From Spirochaetales bacterium (GTDB taxonomy: Bacteria > Spirochaetota > Spirochaetia > SZUA-6 > JAFGRV01): a stretch of 48,470 bases of DNA. Under the pieces are notes generated by a model, which was given only the letters and a program-made list of their open reading frames with translations, made no database searches and was not told the origin of the DNA. The stretch covers positions 1 to 48,470 of the forward strand of contig JAFGHO010000081.1 of NCBI GenBank assembly GCA_016930085.1. Reading direction: 5' to 3'. Positions within the stretch are counted from its first letter, which is position 1, and each line of letters begins with the position of its first letter. Below are positions 140 to 47,288 of this stretch, piece after piece. The translations under genes and the position numbers were made by a program.

Positions 140-1213
140 TTAATGTTCGATTCCAATTCCTTGATCGCCGCTTGTGTTTTTTGAACCGACAAGAAAATAT
201 CCGACAAAATAATCATATGTAGTAGTATCTGTATTTTTAACTGGATGTGTTGGACTACCTTGAGGAGGGAAAGAATTGTAAGTCCAATGTATAATGGAGG
301 GATTGGATATTTCGTTACCACTTAGATAGTTTACTCCATCGAGATTAGCAGCAATTGCCGGGCCATGCTTATGAGACCAATAACCATTTCTATCCAATCT
401 ATAAAAATGGTAATTGGAATATTTTTCAGTTTCTGTAATACTGGATTGTAAAACAAGTGCGATAACAGCCTGATTTTTTCCGGGAATAGGAATGGCATCG
501 TTGCCCATGTAAGGCAATTTGGTATTATCTTCCATCCAATCAATCATTTGATCTTTTGTATAATTACCGGACTGATATCCTTTAGGGTTTGTCCACGTAG
601 TTTTTATGATATTACGAGCATAATTATAACAATTATTATTCTGTATAGTCCCATTTTTATTCCATACATCAGGATCATATGATGGCGAATAAGAAAGATC
701 AAATGTCTTTGTATCTGTCTTTTTTGGACCGGTTTTCCATTTTCTGCTCCAAAAATATGCAGAGTAATATTCCCTGGCATATATTATAACAGTAAACTTA
801 TTTTTAGCTAATTCATCGGGTGATAAATCAATATGATATGTTTTATTATCGCCGGATCCCTCGACAACACCCTTAATGCTATACGTATCGATATATTTCT
901 CGACGATAACCTCCTTGGTCTCATTGTATCCCCATTGATTTGTTTTTGTTATTGTTTCACGCTCATAAGTTATTTCAGGTGATGTGTACCATACTTCTGA
1001 ATAATAATGTCTATAGTCGGTGTTATCATATGGTACATCCCAATGAAGACAATAGTGCGTTGCCGAACCTTTTGTTTTCTGATCGGGAATAGATGTATCT
1101 GTTTTATCATTATCATCCATTTTTTCGAGCTGACAACTCAACAGCAAAAGGAATAAATAACCAATCGATACTGCATTTCCCATAATCATAATCACCCTTT
1201 TTTTTCTTTTCAT
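140..1213 (-). CDS. Secreted protein, probable lipoprotein, in an AT-rich segment. Conserved Cys...His residues suggest a possible Cys/His hydrolase, function unknown.
   Basis: ORF 140..1288. Preferred start is the internal ATG at 1213, preceded by AGGAG (tttaaaggagtttttATG). The N-terminus MKRKKRVIMIMGNAVSIGYLFLLLLSC is a signal peptide with a lipobox-like LLSC. Confidence 0.6.
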   Translation of the reverse strand: MKRKKRVIMIMGNAVSIGYLFLLLLSCQLEKMDDNDKTDTSIPDQKTKGSATHYCLHWDVPYDNTDYRHYYSEVWYTSPEITYERETITKTNQWGYNETKEVIVEKYIDTYSIKGVVEGSGDNKTYHIDLSPDELAKNKFTVIIYAREYYSAYFWSRKWKTGPKKTDTKTFDLSYSPSYDPDVWNKNGTIQNNNCYNYARNIIKTTWTNPKGYQSGNYTKDQMIDWMEDNTKLPYMGNDAIPIPGKNQAVIALVLQSSITETEKYSNYHFYRLDRNGYWSHKHGPAIAANLDGVNYLSGNEISNPSIIHWTYNSFPPQGSPTHPVKNTDTTTYDYFVGYFLVGSKNTSGDQGIGIEH

Positions 1214-1536
1214 AAAAACTCCTTTAAAAACTATTTTATATTTCCCGCCCGGAATAACAGGAGGAATATATAATTTCGTGAAAATCATCGGCTACCATTT
1301 TGATGCTTGTATGGAAATAGTATCTCAAAGGGAAATCACTCTCTTTTCACTTAATATTTATTATACAAGGGATTGAATTGAATAATTGCACGGCATCTTT
1401 CATAAATATATAAACAGCAGAGTACGACAAACGCTTGCTCCGCTATAAAAAACCTTTGGCTTTTAGGGAGGCAACTCCACCCTGAATTATTTACAGGACG
1501 GGGTAATTTACTTGTTTTGAAGGCAAATGATTTCTT

Positions 1537-9913: not shown

Positions 9914-10076
9914 AAACGCGTGTCCATATCATCCTCCTGCGTGAGGGGGCGGATTCTTTTGGCGGGAAACGCCGGATCGCAGGCCGGCAGGACATCGCCT
10001 TTTTCGTGCATACGATTAATACCGGCTTCATCAAGCGTGAATAATCGTATCGATAAAACGGCAGGTCCCAAAGTGG

Positions 10077-12092
10077 TCAGCCAAAGAATTTCCTGTTTAT
10101 CGTTTCGATATCGAATTCTTCCGGATCGAAATCCGCCGCCCATTTTCTCATTTTCTCGTAGTGAGTATGCGAGGGGTTTTTGAGAATCTCAACGAGATGC
10201 TCATAACCCGGAGGTCCGCCGCAGTCTTCCGGGGGACATGAGCGTTCGCCGTCAAGGCATTTGATGATCCGGCGATCGTCTTCGTCAAGCCGGTCGGCCG
10301 GAATGATCTCCTCGACCGTAACGGTATGGAGCCAGCTGTCACCGAAATCGTATTCATAGGTGATCGAGGTTCCCTCTTTTCCAAGGATCCGATCGATGGC
10401 GACAGTGCTTTCATCGGCGACATCCTCAGTCTCATTATCCGAAGGATCGCCATATTCGACACCGCCGGCCCAAAAGGAGTGAAGATGGTAATTTTCCCAT
10501 CCCATTGCCGTCTGGATGGCCGAATGAAGTTCCGAAAGGGTCCTGTTCCCGGGAATACGTATTCTCCGCCATATCTCCGGTTTGATGTCCCGGAGTATGA
10601 TCTTGAGAATCAACACGGACTCAGGACTCTCCTTTTTTACAAGCTTGAGGTCCGGTTCGAATCTTTTTTCCACCGTCTCCATAATATGCCGGATCAACGC
10701 TTCCGTTTTTTCGAGTTCATCATCGAAATCGATGTCGCCGTCATTATCGAAAGCTTCGGGGTCGTTGCAGGTTTCGAGAATAATTCTCAAGGATTCAAAG
10801 CCATGCGAGACGAGGACAATATCTTCGGGGATCAGGATATTAATCGAAAATCCCCGTTCCTGCAATGTTTCTATCCATTCCATAAAATTGTTTTGCAAAG
10901 CAAGGGCTTTTTCCCGTACGATACCGGCGGCCTGGTCCTTGAAATAGTTATATTGCTTGGTAATGTCTTCCCATAATTCATCGATAAACCGATAAAACAT
11001 GTCTTCCTGAAATTGATCATAGAAGTGCAGGTCGAGGTATTGAAGACATCGTTCCACGGCATCTTCACACGAGGTTTTTCTGTGAAAAAGCTCGTTTCGC
11101 ATAAAGGCTTCAATCTCAACGGATGAGATCGGTGCATTGATATCGGTGAGAATGTCATTCAGGGAGTCGAAATCCCCTTTCATGACATGGGGGGTGCTGA
11201 TATCTTCCGTCCTGATTTCTTCATCCTTTAGCCACAGAAAGGATTTGGAGCCGATATATTTCAATTCAACCACATCATTTGAGGCGAGAAAATTTCCGAT
11301 ATTGAGGAGGGGATGTCTGATCAGTTCTTCCCCGCCAAGATAAAAGGCATAAGCGAGTTGTTCGCTTATGAGTGCCGGAAGGCCCAGTTTCGTAAAAGCA
11401 CGCAGGAAACCCGATTCGAGATCGGCTATCCACTGCTTCACCGCCCATTTTTCCTTTTCCCGCTCTTCTTTTGAAATATATGTAAACCGGTATTCACCTT
11501 TCGCCCAGTTTCCTACCGTTACGATGAAAGCGTCACCGTCCTTCATGCCGTATCTGCGATAGAGGTCCTGCATGTCAAAAACGGTTATAATCACTTCTTC
11601 CGATTCCGGGTGGTCGCAAAGAAAAATTTCGGTATTTGCTTCATCGTCATAAATAAGGTAATCCGGAATGACATCGTGCCCCAGGAGAGACAGATAAATG
11701 GTCACATCATCCAGGTTCATCCGGGTTTTTATTTTTTCCACGATGATACCGTCTTCAGGACAAAGCGTACATTCCGGCGGAAAAATTTCGGGATTACAGA
11801 ACGGGAGAAAACGGTGTCCGGGGACCAGAATGCCCGCCCCTATTTCTTCGTTTGTCGGTACGAGAAGAAACCTGGCCTTGTCGAAATAGAGCGAGCGGGG
11901 AATAAACAGGGATGTTTCATCATCGTGAAAGAGATTCCGGTCGATCTTCAGCTGATTGAGAATCCGCGTTTCACAATCAGGCACAGGGGTCGGAAGGGAT
12001 GTGCCGATTGCTTCGACTATTTCCCCGATTTCGAATTCTTTCTGAGTATTTTTGATAAACGATTTTATATTTTCTTTCAGGTGAACCGTCAT
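10077..12092 (-). CDS. Large hypothetical cytoplasmic protein (about 671 aa) with a C-terminal plasmid pRiA4b ORF-3-like domain.
   Basis: C-terminal YEYDFGDSWLHTVTVEE ... CPPEDCGGPPGYEHL matches the PRiA4_ORF3-like domain signature as I recall it. The N-terminal 500 aa have no recognisable motif. Start trimmed to Met 12092; the 12269 start would overlap the upstream GT gene by 167 nt. Confidence 0.7.
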   Translation of the reverse strand: MTVHLKENIKSFIKNTQKEFEIGEIVEAIGTSLPTPVPDCETRILNQLKIDRNLFHDDETSLFIPRSLYFDKARFLLVPTNEEIGAGILVPGHRFLPFCNPEIFPPECTLCPEDGIIVEKIKTRMNLDDVTIYLSLLGHDVIPDYLIYDDEANTEIFLCDHPESEEVIITVFDMQDLYRRYGMKDGDAFIVTVGNWAKGEYRFTYISKEEREKEKWAVKQWIADLESGFLRAFTKLGLPALISEQLAYAFYLGGEELIRHPLLNIGNFLASNDVVELKYIGSKSFLWLKDEEIRTEDISTPHVMKGDFDSLNDILTDINAPISSVEIEAFMRNELFHRKTSCEDAVERCLQYLDLHFYDQFQEDMFYRFIDELWEDITKQYNYFKDQAAGIVREKALALQNNFMEWIETLQERGFSINILIPEDIVLVSHGFESLRIILETCNDPEAFDNDGDIDFDDELEKTEALIRHIMETVEKRFEPDLKLVKKESPESVLILKIILRDIKPEIWRRIRIPGNRTLSELHSAIQTAMGWENYHLHSFWAGGVEYGDPSDNETEDVADESTVAIDRILGKEGTSITYEYDFGDSWLHTVTVEEIIPADRLDEDDRRIIKCLDGERSCPPEDCGGPPGYEHLVEILKNPSHTHYEKMRKWAADFDPEEFDIETINRKFFG

Positions 12093-12102
12093 ATATTCCC
12101 TT

Positions 12103-13272
12103 TCAAACAGACGATTTATGGGCGGTGATTGCTTTCTGATAACAGTCCAGGAGTTGAACCGTGAGTCGTCTGGATGAATACATTTCCGATACTTCTTTTG
12201 CTTCCGTCGATTTTCGATCGTACAACGCTGCGTTTCGGAGAAGCTCGACAACCCTTTTCGTGAATTCATGTTTATCCGGATCCGTGAGATATCCCCCCTT
12301 GTTATTCTTTACGATATCGATAACACCCATCGCCTTGACCGCGACAACCGGAGTACCCGCCGCCATGGCTTCAAGCAGTGACAACCCTTGTGTTTCCGTA
12401 CGGGAAGCAAAGATAAATATATCCGAAGCCGCGAGTATGTTCATGACTTCGTTCCTTGTAATATAACCGAGGAATATTACCTTGTCACCGATTCCCAATT
12501 TTTTAGCCTGGTTCTGGAGATATCCACGGACGGGCCCGTCCCCGATAAAAAGAAGAATGGTATCCGGTACCTGTTTCTGAATATGAGCAAACGCCTGGAT
12601 AAGAAAAGGAAAATTCTTTTCTTTTGTAATTCTTCCGACACAGATCAGTATTTTTTTCCGGAGGGGGATGTCGTATTTTTTTCTGGTCTCCTCGTTACGG
12701 CGGATTTTTCCGTTAAATTGTTCGATCCCGGTGGGGAGTATGATAATATCGGAAGTGACTCCGTATCCAAGTAAAACATCTTTTATAATACTCGAAGGGG
12801 ACAGGACAAAAACCGAATAATCGCAATAGAATTTGCTTAACCGGATTGCCAGCGGTGTGAGGATTTTCTTCGGCAGCGGTATGTAATGTACATATTCCGC
12901 GATATAGGTATGATATGTCTGGATAAGGGGGATTTTTAGCCGCCTGCTTAAGTATGTTGCAAAAAGCCCCATGAATAACGGTGTGTGGAAGTGGATGATA
13001 TCCAGGTTGAGGTTTTTGATTTTTTTCAGCTTTGTCGGGAAGGGGATGACGAGTTTGTATTCCCGGTAAAGGGGGTAGGACAAGGCAAAATATCGAAAGA
13101 TATTGTTTTTTTCTTCTTCTTTTCTTGATTCTGAGGTATGTCTCTTTACGATCGGACAAAATACATAGATATTGTGACCGAGTTTGATCAATTCCTTTCT
13201 GAATATTTCAATTGACGTCACAATTCCGTTTATCGATGGAAGATATGTGTCCGTGAAAATACCGATATTCAT
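12103..13272 (-). CDS. GT4-family (GT-B fold) glycosyltransferase.
   Basis: MNIGIFTDTYLPSINGIVTSI N-terminus and EAMAAGTPVVA C-terminal sugar-donor motif are typical of GT4 retaining glycosyltransferases. Confidence 0.8.
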   Translation of the reverse strand: MNIGIFTDTYLPSINGIVTSIEIFRKELIKLGHNIYVFCPIVKRHTSESRKEEEKNNIFRYFALSYPLYREYKLVIPFPTKLKKIKNLNLDIIHFHTPLFMGLFATYLSRRLKIPLIQTYHTYIAEYVHYIPLPKKILTPLAIRLSKFYCDYSVFVLSPSSIIKDVLLGYGVTSDIIILPTGIEQFNGKIRRNEETRKKYDIPLRKKILICVGRITKEKNFPFLIQAFAHIQKQVPDTILLFIGDGPVRGYLQNQAKKLGIGDKVIFLGYITRNEVMNILAASDIFIFASRTETQGLSLLEAMAAGTPVVAVKAMGVIDIVKNNKGGYLTDPDKHEFTKRVVELLRNAALYDRKSTEAKEVSEMYSSRRLTVQLLDCYQKAITAHKSSV

Positions 13273-13608
13273 ATATACAAGGTGAAAAGCTATCGTATTC
13301 GGTATAAAATGTCAATATTGTCTTCGAGTCTTTATACATGTTCGGGAAAAAGGCCTCGGAAAAGGTTTATAAAAGGCAGACGATATTGCCGTATCGACGA
13401 AAAACGGTCGATCCATGAAGGCGGACATTCCGTCTTTCCACGATACCTCCCCCGCATAATCCCTTTCTTTTTTGGAGAAAACGATAAAGAAGGGTGTGGA
13501 CAAACTCTTTTTTATTTGGTATTCTTGATCACCGTGTCGATCGCGGTCATTGCGTGGTGTACTCCAAAAAGAGAAATCTCTGTGGCCGCGTATTCAGGGT
13601 TTTTTTAT

Positions 13609-13680
13609 GGCGCCGTACCCAAGTGGTAAGGGAGAGGTCTGCAAAACCTTTATGCACCGGTTCGAATCCGGTCGGCGCCT
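13609..13680 (+). tRNA. tRNA-Cys (anticodon GCA).
   Basis: Manual fold. 7-bp acceptor stem GGCGCCG/CGGCGCC, D-arm CCC-AGTGGTAA-GGG, anticodon stem GAGGT/ACCTT with loop CTGCAAA, T-arm CACCGG-TTCGAAT-CCGGT, discriminator T. No encoded CCA. Confidence 0.85.
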
Positions 13681-13853
13681 TATTTTAATTTTCACTGATT
13701 TATTGAATACATCTTTCATCAGAATTAATAAAATAAATATATCGAACCATCGTGCGGCTGTATTTTGTGAGTTCAATAAAGGACGAATCGTTTATAATGG
13801 AAAGAAGATAACAGAAAATGCAATGACAGAAAATCAAATAATGAGGTCTCGCA

Positions 13854-14963
13854 ATGAGTTCACTCGATAGATTAACCATTAAAGGATTTAAATCAATCAA
13901 AACCCTCGAAGACTTTAGTCTCGGCAAACTCAATATATTTATCGGGGGTAATGGTGCCGGAAAAACAAATCTGATAGGCTTCTTTCGAATGCTGAGAAGC
14001 CTGATCGACGGCAACCTTGGGAATTATGTCGTACAGAACGGCGGGGCTGGCGATCTTCTTTTTAACGGTCCAAAAATAACAACTGAAATGGAGTTTACAA
14101 CCATTTTTGGCATTCGAGGATACTGTTTTACGCTGAAGCCGACGCCAAAGGATAAATGTATTATTACAGCTGAAAAACGTTTTTACAAATATGCACGTAC
14201 CGGAGGTGGATGGTGGGACCTTGGTGACGGCGATGATGACACGTCACTTCTCGTTAAAGAAGCGAAAAGCAAGCGAAAAGACAGTCAATACAGTCTGCCA
14301 GTCTATGAGGCGATCGCTTCATGGCAGATTTACCACTTTCATGATACAAGTGAAACTTCAGCAATGCGACAGTATGAAATAATTCAGGATAATAAATATC
14401 TCAGGGGAAATGCGTCAAATATCGCTCCTTATTTATTCATGTTGAAAAATAAATATTTTACTGAATATACTGAAATTCTTAATGCAGTGAGAATGGTGAT
14501 GCCTTTCTTTGACGATTTCCTTCTGGATATTACGGATTTCGGAAGAAAGCAAAAACTAAACCTTTCGTGGAAACAAAAGGGATCGGATTATCCGATGCAG
14601 CCATATCATCTGTCGGACGGTTCTCTCCGTTTTATCTGTCTTGCAACGGCATTATTACAGCCGGACCCGCCGTCGACGATCATAATCGATGAACCTGAAT
14701 TGGGTCTTCATCCGGAAGCGATATCGATTCTGTCTGAACTTATTCAGGATGCTTCAAAACGCACCCAGATTATTGTTGCAACTCAGTCTCCGGCATTGAT
14801 CGATCATTTCGGTATTGAAGACATTATTGTAGTAAAAAGAGAAAATGGAGCCTCTACTTTTCAACGATTGAATGAAGAAGATTTTAAAACGTGGCTTGAA
14901 AATTATTCCGTTGGGGAACTTTGGACCAAAAACGTTATCGACGGCGGTCCTGTTTATGAGTGA
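13854..14963 (+). CDS. ABC-type (AAA_21/AAA_15-like, OLD/SMC-like) ATPase. First gene of the candidate defence pair.
   Basis: Walker A GGNGAGKTN, YHFHD motif, ABC-signature-like LSDGSLR, Walker B TIIIDEPELGLHP, H-loop-like IVATQSP. Low GC relative to neighbours. Confidence 0.85.
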   Translation: MSSLDRLTIKGFKSIKTLEDFSLGKLNIFIGGNGAGKTNLIGFFRMLRSLIDGNLGNYVVQNGGAGDLLFNGPKITTEMEFTTIFGIRGYCFTLKPTPKDKCIITAEKRFYKYARTGGGWWDLGDGDDDTSLLVKEAKSKRKDSQYSLPVYEAIASWQIYHFHDTSETSAMRQYEIIQDNKYLRGNASNIAPYLFMLKNKYFTEYTEILNAVRMVMPFFDDFLLDITDFGRKQKLNLSWKQKGSDYPMQPYHLSDGSLRFICLATALLQPDPPSTIIIDEPELGLHPEAISILSELIQDASKRTQIIVATQSPALIDHFGIEDIIVVKRENGASTFQRLNEEDFKTWLENYSVGELWTKNVIDGGPVYE

Positions 14964-15627
14964 TTTCATTGAGATTATTGTCATCGTCGAAGGAAAAACG
15001 GAAAAAATATTCATTAATAGTATACTCAAAGATAACCTGGCTGATAGAAATATATATATGACGCCAATCATCATATCGAAACCCGGAGAGAAGGGGGGAG
15101 ATATCAAATTCAGCAGGGCTTTAAAAGACATAACCATACACATGAAACAGCGCGCCGACACGTTCGTCAGCCTGTTTATTGATTATTACGGCCTGAAGCC
15201 GGATTGGCCCGGTTTCATTAATGCAAAAAAGGAAGAAGAACCCGCAAAAATCGCTTCAATAATTAATGATTCAACTCATTTGGCGGTCAATACCGAATTA
15301 TCGGCATACAGGTCAGACATTCGTTTTATACCACATATAACCGTACATGAATTCGAAGCATTGCTTTTCAGTGATGCAAGCAGTCTTGCTTCGGAACTTC
15401 ACGTTGATAAATCAGACGTGGATAAAATTATTGATCAATTCGGTGATCCTGAAAAAATAGATGATTCTCCCGATGAAGCACCGTCGAAACGTCTGGAGCG
15501 ATTATATCCAAAATATAAAAAAACGACGACAGGCATAATAATAGCACGCAATATCGGGATCGATGCAATGAGAAAAAAATGCCGAATTTTCAATGACTGG
15601 TTGAAGCGGATTGAATCCCATTTGTAG
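14956..15627 (+). CDS. DUF4276-like / putative TOPRIM-fold protein. Second gene of the candidate defence pair.
   Basis: N-terminus MSDFIEIIVIVEGKTEKIF has a TOPRIM-like conserved Glu in EGxTE. Further acidic positions LFIDYYG and HEFEALLFSD. The ATG overlaps the ATPase stop (ATGAGTGA), suggesting translational coupling. The 14872 start in the ORF track is an in-frame over-extension into the ATPase gene. Confidence 0.7.
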   Translation: MSDFIEIIVIVEGKTEKIFINSILKDNLADRNIYMTPIIISKPGEKGGDIKFSRALKDITIHMKQRADTFVSLFIDYYGLKPDWPGFINAKKEEEPAKIASIINDSTHLAVNTELSAYRSDIRFIPHITVHEFEALLFSDASSLASELHVDKSDVDKIIDQFGDPEKIDDSPDEAPSKRLERLYPKYKKTTTGIIIARNIGIDAMRKKCRIFNDWLKRIESHL

Positions 15628-15727
15628 GTTATAAGCTAATTGAAATAAAATTCTTGATATTTCGTTGGAAAATGAAAAGTGAGTTCGCAATGTCGTCATT
15701 GGTTTTTCTTTTTGAAGTGTTTTCAGG

Positions 15728-16324
15728 TTACTGTCCGGAGTTGTAACCATCTTGTTTTTCTGCATGTATCATATACAGACTATACCAGTTATAGGAAACA
15801 ATCGTTTGCGAATTACAAAACGCCTCTTTTTTTTCCCGGATGTTCGATGCAACCTCGTCGACCGGAATAATGACGGATTCGATGATTTCGTCCGCGTCGA
15901 ACCGGGTTTCTCCCGTTGCTTCGAGACCGGTGGCCAGAAATGTGTGGCTTTGATTCGTCATGAATGAGGGGCAGGGATATGTCGAGCCGATATAGATGAG
16001 TTTTCCGGCCCGGTACCCTGTTTCTTCAATCAACTCGCGGCCTGCGGTCTCTTCCGGCGATTCATCCTCATCGACAAGTCCCGCCGGAAACTCGCACATC
16101 ACCTTTTTGTTCCCGTGACGGAATTGTTTCACCATGAGAAAACAATCGGTTCCTTCGCTGTTTTTTATCAGGGGGATGACCGTTACCCAGTCGCAGGCTT
16201 CAAGAATGTAAAAATCACTCGTCGCGCCCAGAGGAGATAACCGGTCTGAGACTTCAAGGGTAAAAATTCGGCAGTCTTTGAGGACGTCCGTTTTTATTTC
16301 TTTCCACTTAAGGTGGTCGTCCAT
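15728..16324 (-). CDS. NUDIX hydrolase (ADP-ribose pyrophosphatase-like).
   Basis: Nudix box GLVDEDESPEETAGRELIEETGY (GX5EX7REUXEEXGU). Confidence 0.8.
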   Translation of the reverse strand: MDDHLKWKEIKTDVLKDCRIFTLEVSDRLSPLGATSDFYILEACDWVTVIPLIKNSEGTDCFLMVKQFRHGNKKVMCEFPAGLVDEDESPEETAGRELIEETGYRAGKLIYIGSTYPCPSFMTNQSHTFLATGLEATGETRFDADEIIESVIIPVDEVASNIREKKEAFCNSQTIVSYNWYSLYMIHAEKQDGYNSGQ

Positions 16325-16469
16325 GGCCCACCATCATAGCCTATATTAAAAAAGGAAACAAGTGGGTGAGGGAATGCCCTGTTCATTCCCAATTGTACGG
16401 CGCGCCCTGCGATCAAAGCGGCTGTCGAAGATGACCGTACTCCGGAAATGGGGCCGGGAAAAGCAGGTG

Positions 16470-33952: not shown

Positions 33953-34294
33953 TTATCCTATGGCCCGGGAGCCTCGTTCGCCGGTCCTGATTCGAACACA
34001 TTCTTCGATGGGAAGAACGAATATTTTTCCGTCACCGGTCGATCCGGTTTTCGCTCCCCGCATAATCGCCTTTATCGTCGGTTCCGCATAATCATCGTTC
34101 ACCGCTATCTGAAGTTCCACTTTTTTGAGGAGTTTGATTTCGTGTTTCACTCCCCTGTAGGTTTCAGGATATCCCTTCTGCCTGCCCGAACCGATTGACT
34201 GGACAACGGTCATGAGATTGACGGTTGCGTCCGTCAATTCCTTTTTTACATCAGAAAGCTTCTCCGGCCGGATAACGGCAATAATCAGTTTCAT
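33953..34294 (-). CDS. glnB: Nitrogen regulatory protein P-II.
   Basis: MKLIIAVIRPEKLSDVKKEL...IGSGRQKG...RGVKHEIKLLKKVELQIAV...GDGKIFVLPIEECVRIRTGE matches PII including the T-loop region. Start at Met 34294 with a GGAGGAGG RBS. The ORF-track start at 34471 is an over-extension. Confidence 0.85.
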   Translation of the reverse strand: MKLIIAVIRPEKLSDVKKELTDATVNLMTVVQSIGSGRQKGYPETYRGVKHEIKLLKKVELQIAVNDDYAEPTIKAIMRGAKTGSTGDGKIFVLPIEECVRIRTGERGSRAIG

Positions 34295-34376
34295 AATCAA
34301 CCTCCTCCGCCAAATACAATTTCCGGACACCTTAACTGTTACATTTCTCCGGTGATTATTGGCCTTATTCTTATAA

Positions 34377-34393
34377 TGCAAGGAGTGTGCCAA
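34377..34393 (-). promoter_or_regulatory. Sigma-54 (RpoN) -24/-12 promoter TTGGCAC-N5-TTGCAT upstream of glnB.
   Basis: Minus-strand reading acgTTGGCACactccTTGCATtata. GG-to-GC spacing is exactly consensus, about 85 nt upstream of the glnB ATG. Confidence 0.7.
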
Positions 34394-34617
34394 CGTATGG
34401 ATGGCGATAAATATAGGTAATTGCCGGTTGATATAAAGAAATAATAAATTTACAGAAAAGCAGGCATACAAAAATGTATTAAAAATAAATTAAAAATACG
34501 AAGATGTAGGAAGTGGCTGCAAGAAGGTATCTGTGTGGTTGAATATTAAATTCGAAAAGCCGCCTTTCTTTTTTTTCCATAAAAAAGCGGAGTCCCGATA
34601 TTTTGTATTCGTAAAAC

Positions 34618-34646
34618 TTGACACTTATATGCAATTATTTTATAAT
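34618..34646 (+). promoter_or_regulatory. Perfect-consensus sigma-70 promoter (TTGACA-17 nt-TATAAT) immediately upstream of the HD-GYP gene.
   Basis: TTGACActtatatgcaattattTTATAAT. The predicted TSS is about 6 nt before the ATG at 34659, giving a near-leaderless transcript. Confidence 0.6.
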
Positions 34647-34658
34647 CACCTTATAAAA

Positions 34659-35693
34659 ATGGATGATTTTATATCTAGTAAAAAAGAAGATAAGGTTACA
34701 GTAAAAACAATTCTCAATTCACCGGGGGTAAAACTCTGGGCAAAGAGTTTTTTTCAAAATGATGTTCCGTTTTTTATCGTGAACAAAAGCCTGAAGATTA
34801 TATGGGTCAATCCCCGTTTTGCGGCCTTTTTTGGACCTCTCAAGGATTTCTTCGGTATGAGAATCGATAAATTCTATGCCGAATCCTTTCCACGGGAAAA
34901 ATTGCGGGTCCTGTATCAGGATTTAAGCTCCTCGAAACGTTCGTGGCAGGGTAAAGTTGAACGCCGCGGGATGAATATGAGAAGGATAATTTCCAACCTT
35001 ATTCTTTGTCCGCTTTTTAAATCACCGGAAGAAGTACGTGAACCAGTCGCCTATGCGTGTATCCTCGACAATATCGGTGAAGAATATAGAAAAATGCTCA
35101 GGTATACCTTCAAAAGCCTGCTCGAGGCATCCCGGCTGAAAGACAATGCGTCTGACGGGCATAACGAGCGGGTCAACCGGTATGCAAAAATCCTGGCGGA
35201 GAATCTGTTGGGGAAGTCCGGTTTTGAAGAAGTTGATATGACCTATGTCGAGGACATCGGTTATCTCGCCGCGATGCACGATGTGGGAAAGATAGGAACG
35301 CCGGATGATATCCTGAATAAAAGCCAACCGCTCGAAGACTGGGAGTGGAAAATAATCAAGGAGCATACGATCAACGGGGCCTATATTCTCAGCACGTACC
35401 CGAATCTGCTGGCAAAGGAAATCGCGTTATACCATCATGAACGATGGCAGGGGGACGGATATCCGTATGGGCTGAGTCAGGACATGATCCCTCTTTCTGC
35501 GAGAATCGTCGCGGTCGCGGACGTTTATGATGCCCTTCGCATGAAGCGGACGTACAGGGAAGTGGTGACGCACAGAGAGGCTAAAGTGGTGATTTTAAAC
35601 GGTAGGGGAACACAATTCGATCCTGCGATTGTAGATAATTTCCTTGATGTCGAAAAAGAGTTCGACAGGATATACCATGAATTGAAGGATTAA
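34659..35693 (+). CDS. HD-GYP domain c-di-GMP phosphodiesterase family protein.
   Basis: HDVGKIGTPDDIL, HHERWQGDGYPYGL and DVYDAL are HD-GYP hallmarks. Start uncertain (34533, 34629 and 34659 are all in frame); 34659 was chosen because of the promoter position. Confidence 0.75.
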   Translation: MDDFISSKKEDKVTVKTILNSPGVKLWAKSFFQNDVPFFIVNKSLKIIWVNPRFAAFFGPLKDFFGMRIDKFYAESFPREKLRVLYQDLSSSKRSWQGKVERRGMNMRRIISNLILCPLFKSPEEVREPVAYACILDNIGEEYRKMLRYTFKSLLEASRLKDNASDGHNERVNRYAKILAENLLGKSGFEEVDMTYVEDIGYLAAMHDVGKIGTPDDILNKSQPLEDWEWKIIKEHTINGAYILSTYPNLLAKEIALYHHERWQGDGYPYGLSQDMIPLSARIVAVADVYDALRMKRTYREVVTHREAKVVILNGRGTQFDPAIVDNFLDVEKEFDRIYHELKD

Positions 35694-46748: not shown

Positions 46749-47288
46749 ATGGCACTGACGAAAGTGAAATTGACATACCGGGATTTCATTCTCTTCCCCG
46801 ATAATGGAAAGCGGCATGAGCTTATTGATGGAGATCATTTTATAACCCCTGCACCATCCATACGGCATCAAATCGTATCAAAAAATATTGAATATCTTTT
46901 TGAACGATATTTCAGAAACAGCGATACCGGCATTATTCTGGATGCACCGGTCGATGTGTATCTGTCTGATTTTGATATTGTCGAGCCGGATCTCATCATC
47001 ATAAAAAAAGAGAATCAGAAGATTATCAGGGACAACTACATTAAGGGACACCCCGATATGGTGGTTGAAATAATCTCTCCCTCAACTCAAAAAAACGACA
47101 TTGAATTGAAAAAACATCTCTATGAAAAATATGGCGTAGAAGAGTACTGGATAGTCGATCCTGATAATAATGAAGTGCAGCAGTATGTATTACGTGAAGG
47201 AACGTATATGAAGCGCGGAACGTTCACCGACGGCATTACCGCACATATATTGCCGGATTTATCAATCGATTTAAAAAAGATATTTTAG
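46749..47288 (+). CDS. Uma2-family (DUF820) PD-(D/E)XK putative endonuclease.
   Basis: YRDFILFPDNGKRHELIDGD ... SPSIRHQ ... DAPVDVYLSDFDIVEPDLIII is the typical Uma2 signature. Confidence 0.75.
   Translation: MALTKVKLTYRDFILFPDNGKRHELIDGDHFITPAPSIRHQIVSKNIEYLFERYFRNSDTGIILDAPVDVYLSDFDIVEPDLIIIKKENQKIIRDNYIKGHPDMVVEIISPSTQKNDIELKKHLYEKYGVEEYWIVDPDNNEVQQYVLREGTYMKRGTFTDGITAHILPDLSIDLKKIF

Follow-up and report, generated by a model that had tools for sequence, protein, structure and literature searches.

Two overlapping genes on a 48,470-bp contig from a metagenome-assembled genome (MAG) of a 'Spirochaetales bacterium' (the contig is referred to below as the window) raise the question of whether the pair is an anti-phage defence system and, if so, which one. 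Gene A (13854–14963, forward strand, as are all features of the pair) encodes a 369-residue protein of 41.8 kDa, an ABC ATPase of the SMC/Rad50-head type without a coiled coil. Gene B (14956–15627, with its ATG at 14956) encodes a DUF4276 protein of 223 residues and 25.5 kDa, the presumed nuclease effector. Both genes were verified by open reading frame (ORF) listing and direct reading. The NCBI annotation already names the products 'AAA family ATPase' and 'DUF4276 family protein', respectively. A sequence-only reading of the DNA had taken the pair for a candidate defence system that might be undescribed or poorly described. As detailed below, the pair is an ordinary stand-alone member of HEC-01, a known candidate system in the PADLOC catalogue, and not a new system. 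That this stand-alone copy is a candidate anti-phage or anti-mobile-element module of the HEC-01 type, acquired horizontally by the Spirochaetales bacterium, is the reading we favour, with a probability of about 0.7; the mechanistic details are held with lower confidence.

Assignment to HEC-01 and comparison with related systems

Protein A matches the PADLOC model HEC-01A (PDLC04175) with an E-value of 5e-139 and 461 bits, residues 2–366 aligning with profile positions 4–362 of 363, and protein B matches HEC-01B (PDLC04188) with an E-value of 4.6e-71, residues 4–221 aligning with profile positions 12–225 of 230. Within PADLOC-DB, these scores far exceed those for AriA, mad3, AbiLi, NsnB, Old, PtuA and GajA; the weak ATPase-domain matches of A include AbiLi (2.7e-24), NsnB (3.8e-21), PtuA (5.3e-15) and GajA (2.9e-13). 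The assignment made here combines the PADLOC protein models with the same-strand adjacency of A and B. HEC-01 stands for Hma-embedded candidate 01 (PADLOC-DB v2), a cassette that combines an ABC ATPase with a TOPRIM protein whose metal site is, by structure prediction, conserved with that of BpOLD (Payne et al., bioRxiv 10.1101/2024.01.29.577857). By abundance, it ranks within the top 12 candidate system types of the microbial genomes from cold seeps (Nature Communications 2026), and is still treated as unvalidated in a wastewater study. Recognition of both proteins by PADLOC models thus bears out the suggestion of a candidate defence system. The pair is indeed poorly described, but it is not undescribed, since PADLOC lists it as HEC-01, and earlier work had assigned DUF4276 to the Toprim superfamily and connected it with Mad4 and Menshen.

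The present pair shares the architecture of HEC-01, in which the gene for a TOPRIM-like protein comes after that for an ABC ATPase on the same strand, and many of its relatives are embedded in methylase-helicase operons; this copy, however, stands alone beside a tRNA-Cys gene, and it is not the representative used in experiments. Mad3-Mad4 of the MADS system likewise pairs an ABC ATPase of the AAA_15/21 type with a DUF4276 Toprim protein, and A partially matches the mad3 and MADS3 models. Yet A scores 91.5 bits on the NCBIfam model MADS3 (NF047739) against a cut-off of 420, and B has no mad4 match in PADLOC. Among the flanking and selected ORFs of the window, we found no methyltransferase and no PADLOC defence match save PDC-S03 (described below), mad genes beyond mad3 not having been searched for specifically.

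In PARIS, the AriA scaffold lets go of AriB, which cuts tRNA. AriB is a DUF4435 protein whereas B belongs to DUF4276, and AriA has 464 residues against the 369 of A. The sequence similarity between A and AriA is marginal (1.9e-5 over the C-terminal lobe), and the PADLOC 'AriA' match on A coincides with the footprint of the generic Pfam domain AAA_21; B has no DUF4435 match in Pfam at E ≤1 and no AriB among its PADLOC matches. In the PARIS paper, MADS3-4 and DUF4276 are counted with the systems that combine an AAA15/21 ATPase with TOPRIM. The Menshen paper assigns both DUF4276 and RloB to the Toprim superfamily, with Mad4 as a DUF4276 homologue.

The OLD family, comprising P2 Old, class 1 TsOLD, class 2 BpOLD and GajA, resembles the present pair in that the VEGKTE of B is common with P2 Old and its ExxxE spacing equals that of E400/E404 in BpOLD. 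In OLD proteins and GajA, however, ATPase and TOPRIM are fused in one polypeptide, whereas A and B are separate genes; B also differs in having a tyrosine in place of the second aspartate of the DxD motif, and its OLD-like_TOPRIM score falls under the threshold. Unlike Gabija, the A-B pair has no UvrD-like helicase partner such as GajB. No ORF for the GajB helicase, the PtuB HNH protein or an AbiLii partner adjoins the pair. DUF4276 or RloB Toprim-like predicted effectors also stand beside AAA_15/21-type ATPases in Menshen (NsnC variants with a DUF4276 C-terminal domain), in AbiL and in systems with RloB-type partners, but Menshen (NsnA/B/C) and AbiL (with its RloB-type AbiLii) are made up of other gene sets, none of whose remaining genes is found at the present locus.

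The ATPase and its TOPRIM-like partner

The Pfam check suggested in the sequence-only reading returned the expected families for both proteins. For A, these are AAA_21 (2.6e-36, end to end), with weaker matches to SMC_N and AAA_15. The five ATPase motifs that had been named are all present, at residues 31–39, 160–164, 253–259, 276–287 and 307–313, and conservation was assessed in 35 A homologues. The Walker A motif, or P-loop (GGNGAGKTN, 13944–13970, residues 31–39), contains the invariant residues G31, N33, G34, G36 and K37, and YHFHD occupies residues 160–164. The ABC signature-like motif LSDGSLR (14610–14630, residues 253–259), with invariant S254, D255, G256 and R259, sits at the start of helix 255–267 of the predicted structure. 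Walker B and the D-loop (IIIDEPELGLHP, 14679–14714, residues 276–287) are invariant from D279 to P287. The residue at the H-loop position of ABC ATPases is usually histidine. In A, the corresponding segment IVATQSP (14772–14792, residues 307–313) places Gln311 there, and A309, T310, Q311 and S312 are invariant. The AlphaFold2 model of A (predicted local distance difference test score, pLDDT, 88.3) is folded like an SMC/Rad50 head, and the best structural matches are the heads of SMC and Rad50; the best sequence match in the PDB is the TsOLD ATPase (2.1e-7). With Walker A, the signature, Walker B with the D-loop, and the head fold all present, A is placed in the SMC/Rad50/AAA_21 branch of the ABC ATPases.

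The head ends in a C-terminal tail (YSVGELWTKNVIDGGPVYE, 14910–14960, residues 353–369), which AlphaFold2 predicts to be disordered (pLDDT <50). Within it, G354, E355, L356, W357, K359, N360, V361, G364 and G365 are invariant, and P366 and E369 are at least 90% conserved. Because the tail is near-invariant across phyla and yet predicted to be disordered, we suggest that it is a candidate docking peptide, either for B or for another A protomer. We note that an invariant-but-disordered pattern is typical of peptides that fold upon binding a partner.

Protein B, which begins MSDFIEIIVIVEGKTEKIF, matches PF14103 (DUF4276) from end to end with an E-value of 7.8e-53; no NCBIfam model matches it. Direct reading confirms its length of 223 residues and the conserved-glutamate IVEGKTE segment near its start. 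The relation to Toprim/OLD proposed for B finds support in two observations: the Pfam model OLD-like_TOPRIM (PF20469) aligns with residues 7–62, which include the IVEGKTE segment, at 17.1 bits, under the cut-off of 23.2, and the predicted fold comes nearest to the TOPRIM region of OLD. The AlphaFold2 model of B (pLDDT 92.3) consists of a TOPRIM-like core (residues 1–130) and a helical domain (residues 131–223), for which the TOPRIM-plus-helical region of BpOLD from Burkholderia is the top structural match by two search methods. In Foldseek, 6nk8 ranks first (E 4.2e-3, probability 0.99, template-modelling scores 0.46/0.51), and the modelled kinship of B to the OLD TOPRIM is distant. When the B alignment served as a profile against PDB sequences, only chance-level matches such as RNase HII and Cas1 came up, and hhalign of the same alignment against P2 Old places IVIVEGKTE on LLVEGKTE with a probability of only 4.6%, which serves as a pointer only.

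Among 67 diverse family representatives, 30–55% identical to B, five acidic residues (E12, E16, E132, E134 and E166) are invariant, and G13, T15, D76, R123, F124, P126, S177, R179 and K189 are at least 90% conserved. The first segment (IIVIVEGKTEKIF, 14974–15012) comprises strand β1 (residues 5–11 in the model) and the ExxxE pair, E12 coming right after the strand; E12 is the TOPRIM glutamate, and E16 is proposed, by analogy, to match the second, metal-B-associated glutamate of the OLD nucleases. The segment FIDYYG (15175–15192) closes the modelled strand β3 (residues 69–76) and presents D76 at the place of the first aspartate of the TOPRIM DxD motif. The second aspartate is replaced by tyrosine, giving D-Y-Y, and Tyr78 is invariant. 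The HEFE motif (15346–15357) opens the helical domain, with a modelled helix (residues 132–137) right after β4; E132 and E134 would be candidate metal-B ligands, like T506/E508 of BpOLD.

In BpOLD, the active site is made up of E400 and E404 at the +4 spacing, D455-x-D457 and K562, together with T506/E508, which sit on the helix that opens the helical domain; the second DxD aspartate of BpOLD reaches metal A through water only. From residue order and secondary structure, we propose that E12, E16 and D76 of B are equivalent to E400, E404 and D455, that E132 or E134 is equivalent to E508, and that R179 or K178 is equivalent to K562, because BpOLD has the equal ExxxE spacing and a like order of sites. 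The features that place B among the TOPRIM proteins are the conserved glutamate behind β1 and the TOPRIM fold itself, both of which are present.

Pairing, spread and setting of the genes

The two genes overlap by 8 nt (ATGAGTGA, 14956–14963), the start codon of B lying over the stop codon of A. The overlap had been described as one of start codons, a slip of wording for a real 8-nt overlap, and had been taken to indicate an obligate stoichiometric pair. The arrangement argues for translational coupling, which is no proof of stoichiometry. For the family, 80 metagenomic loci were retrieved with the B alignment, and a very specific scan of genome contigs with peptide patterns derived from B gave three loci. 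In every one of the 80 metagenomic loci with room for it, a homologue of A lies immediately upstream of B on the same strand; in the 85 related loci that hold both genes, A and B are always adjacent, and the overlap, of the form ATG-A-N-T-stop, is identical in 75. One locus of Desulfosarcina ovata (AP021876.1) has a type I restriction operon with HsdR, HsdM and DUF1016/YhcG that contains, at 10001–11107 of the locus, an HEC-01A homologue sharing 70% identity with A; this rare A-only arrangement has no B gene and no detectable B remnant. Two near-identical metagenomic contigs hold only fragments of A (~94 residues) and B (~125 residues), ~380 nt apart, and are probably decayed HEC-01 copies.

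The B family is large, with more than 3,000 clusters at 90% identity; a profile search gave 3,957 clusters at 50% identity with E ≤1e-3, including 891 with E ≤1e-30. Nearly all of the top 150 B clusters are stand-alone proteins of ~215–245 residues, shorter entries being partial matches. Homologues of A with 67–80% identity occur in Vibrio, Desulfosarcina, Desulfovibrio, Chlorobiaceae, Brocadiaceae, Victivallaceae, Leptospiraceae and others, and B is 51–70% identical over the same range of taxa. Such identities across unrelated phyla indicate horizontal spread. On viral contigs, two peptide patterns taken from the B alignment matched a single locus, and no phage-borne spread of B was detected at the sensitivity of that two-pattern scan.

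Base composition agrees with the distribution. The pair has a GC content of 0.401 against 0.477 for the window, placing it at the 4th percentile of same-size windows, and the GC content at third codon positions (GC3) is 0.38–0.40 in A and B compared with 0.49–0.61 in the flanking genes, as expected from the sequence-only reading, which had noted the low GC. Composition and distribution together support horizontal acquisition of the pair.

The 173-nt leader of gene A (13681–13853) is AT-rich, carries GAGG 8 nt ahead of the ATG, and is the presumed promoter and ribosome-binding region. A consensus promoter scan of the leader gave no strong site, so its role as a promoter is inferred. Directly upstream of the leader lies the only tRNA gene of the window, a tRNA-Cys(GCA) located by ARAGORN (13609–13680, forward strand), which puts gene A 173 nt downstream of it, on its 3' side as had been noted. 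The low-GC insert is bordered on its left by this tRNA gene, which is taken as a positional marker and not counted as a functional part of the system. We rejected its adjacency as a clue to a tRNA substrate, tRNA genes lying within 8–10 kb of the pair in just three of about 45 related loci and differing in kind.

The neighbours on one side encode a GT4 glycosyltransferase and a PRiA4_ORF3 protein; those on the other encode a NUDIX hydrolase, a hypothetical protein, IMPDH and a TPR protein. These neighbours are unrelated to the pair, in keeping with the earlier remark that it has no metabolic partner genes, and the flanking ORFs gave no match when tested against PADLOC. The PRiA4_ORF3 protein (10077–12269, reverse strand; 730 residues) has a C-terminal domain like ORF-3 of plasmid pRiA4b (3.6e-62). 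Its true start is probably further downstream, because the listed ORF overlaps the end of the glycosyltransferase ORF by ~165 nt. The NUDIX gene was considered as a part of the system and rejected: it is convergent, has normal GC, and is present without the pair in relatives. In those relatives, the NUDIX orthologues (the closest 62% and 48% identical) lie in rearranged contexts in which synteny is not conserved. In two Spirochaetota MAGs, a tRNA-Cys gene lies 3.5 kb from the NUDIX orthologue, with side and orientation kept and with DcuC and an M20 peptidase in between, and a Y1 transposase adjoins the orthologue. The interval between NUDIX and tRNA-Cys thus appears variable in the Spirochaetota lineage.

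The position beside tRNA-Cys does not in itself make the pair part of a tRNA-targeted island. The ORFs from 10 to 20 kb include no integrase, and within 13400–16400 neither a direct repeat of the 3' end of tRNA-Cys nor flanking inverted repeats were found beyond short, chance-level matches. An identical pair occurs in the independent Logan assembly of the same sequencing run (SRR13394437), on a contig that ends 198 nt upstream of A, inside the tRNA-Cys (window position ~13656). This end may be an assembly-graph branch arising from strains with and without the cassette.

Comparably low GC is found elsewhere in the window, at 1–1500, at about 34–35 kb and at 44.5–48 kb. The stretches 1–1500 and 34000–35000 have GC of 0.34–0.40, and their ORFs at 140–1288 (reverse strand), 33953–34471 (reverse strand) and 34533–35693 (forward strand) have no PADLOC match; the first, the only one of them also scanned against Pfam, has no Pfam match. 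A 179-residue ORF at 46749–47288 (forward strand; local GC 0.33–0.39) matches the PADLOC single-gene candidate system PDC-S03 (PDLC04832) with an E-value of 1.4e-44 over nearly its full length, and would give the contig a second candidate for a defence gene.

Possible mechanism, rival explanations and meaning

By analogy to PARIS, OLD and Gabija, from which complex formation, trigger, substrate and outcome are inferred, the mechanism most likely is that of an ATPase sensor controlling a two-metal TOPRIM nuclease, with gene B, as modelled, encoding a divergent OLD-like TOPRIM nuclease with a helical domain. A would oligomerize via ATP-sandwich dimerization of its heads and bind B, possibly by the invariant disordered tail, so that the nuclease is held inactive. 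An infection cue would act on A; either a phage protein, for instance an anti-restriction factor, or a nucleic-acid structure of foreign origin could serve as this cue. ATP binding or hydrolysis would then free or activate B. The two-metal site formed by E12, E16, D76 and E132/E134 would cut nucleic acid (DNA, or tRNA/RNA), and the cutting would halt phage replication directly or through abortive infection.

Several points weigh against assigning a defence role to this copy. An anti-phage role is drawn by analogy from the literature on other HEC-01 representatives, and that literature is divided. A representative tested in E. coli gave no protection against any phage tried (Payne et al., bioRxiv 10.1101/2024.01.29.577857), and in spot assays one other cassette gave E. 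coli B protection from one or more of the phages T7, T5 and T4 (cold-seep study, Nature Communications 2026), a positive result for a different representative whose effect size is absent from the text of that study. In addition, the pair lies outside any defence island in the window, the lone other PADLOC match among ten selected extra ORFs being 31 kb away. The canonical TOPRIM DxD of B is incomplete (D-Y-Y) and the H-loop histidine of A is replaced by glutamine, so that the catalytic competence of A and B is assumed.

The neighbourhoods of relatives bear on both the mechanism and its rivals. N6_N4 methylases account for 7 of 33 upstream neighbours of the pair; of the 35 downstream neighbours, nine are DEAD/ResIII helicases (three with an RE endonuclease domain) and two are integrases, the rest being heterogeneous. 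About a quarter of the copies are therefore embedded in restriction-like operons, and most stand alone. One locus has the order methylase, A, B, ResIII helicase, and in another the pair lies in a defence island with GmrSD, AAA_15/DUF3696 and Cmr genes. In Vibrio vulnificus, the order is SNF2, DUF4391, methylase, A, B, ResIII/RE_endonuc, beside Wadjet and GmrSD. In two other Spirochaetales MAGs the pair stands alone at unrelated loci, with glycoside hydrolase genes around it or with toxin-antitoxin and helicase genes. The survey thus gave what had been anticipated for a defence system, i.e., variable contexts that are often rich in restriction or defence genes, with no conserved syntenic housekeeping locus.

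A more specific version of the mechanism, which we regard as tentative and on balance unlikely, is that HEC-01 acts as a 'guard' in the manner of PARIS, detecting when restriction-type immunity is inhibited or responding to some other conserved infection cue, and that the substrate of its atypical TOPRIM (ExxxE, D-x-Y, HEFE) might be tRNA or RNA and not DNA. This version fits because the methylase-helicase embedding recurs, A is 67–80% identical across phyla, and the tail of A is invariant and disordered.

Somewhat less likely again is that the pair is an accessory or guard module working only with a methylase-helicase partner (Hma, or a type III or type I restriction-like system). It might then fire upon inhibition of the partner, and the present stand-alone copy would be an orphan with little or no activity. 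Such a dependence would account for the quarter of loci in which an N6_N4 methylase lies directly upstream, and a DEAD/ResIII helicase or restriction subunit directly downstream, on the same strand; HEC-01 was, moreover, found as an Hma-embedded cassette that gave no defence when cloned alone, and the related Mad3-Mad4 belongs to the multigene MADS. Yet roughly three quarters of the surveyed loci lack such partners and have both genes intact with the overlap kept, every invariant residue is kept in the present copy, and an HEC-01 cassette on its own has been reported as protective.

We consider it improbable that the pair is a selfish addiction cassette of the toxin-antitoxin (TA) kind, in which the toxic nuclease would be B and its antidote, dependent on ATP, would be A, and which would persist through post-segregational killing and not through protection against phage. 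Tight gene coupling, horizontal spread and low GC would suit such a cassette, as would the copies that adjoin integrases or replication-initiator genes. Pfam does call AAA_21 'putative AbiEii toxin, Type IV TA system', but this label is a historical domain annotation and no evidence on the A-B pair. The rarity of the family on viral contigs (one locus in the two-pattern scan) also speaks against addiction, the repeated embedding in restriction operons fits immunity better, and one defence phenotype is on record. A housekeeping role in DNA repair or chromosome maintenance, as a RecF/SMC-like ATPase with a TOPRIM partner, is suggested by database names ('recombinase RecF' or 'chromosome segregation protein SMC') of some homologues and by the SMC and Rad50 heads that best match A, but is largely refuted by distribution and context and hence very improbable: A has no coiled coil and scores 24.7 bits on the NCBIfam RecF model against a cut-off of 172, the pair is atypical in composition and patchy across phyla at 67–80% identity, indicating horizontal transfer, its genomic positions vary even within Spirochaetales, and the loci around NUDIX homologues (48–62% identical) on other metagenomic or MAG contigs lack it.

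The preferred reading, a stand-alone defence module of the HEC-01 type, has consequences for annotation and experiment. The pair should be labelled HEC-01, not a new system. HEC-01 is widespread (B has ~3,960 clusters at 50% identity), yet the two published tests of it disagree; the window supplies a clean, minimal, stand-alone example with its native leader. New guides for experiments are the near-universal 8-nt overlap, the invariant disordered tail of the ATPase, and the acidic set of B (E12, E16, D76, E132, E134 and E166), which lacks the second DxD aspartate. If the guard version with an RNA target were true, the stand-alone copy would represent a minimal and portable module for abortive infection that targets RNA and has a new active-site variant.

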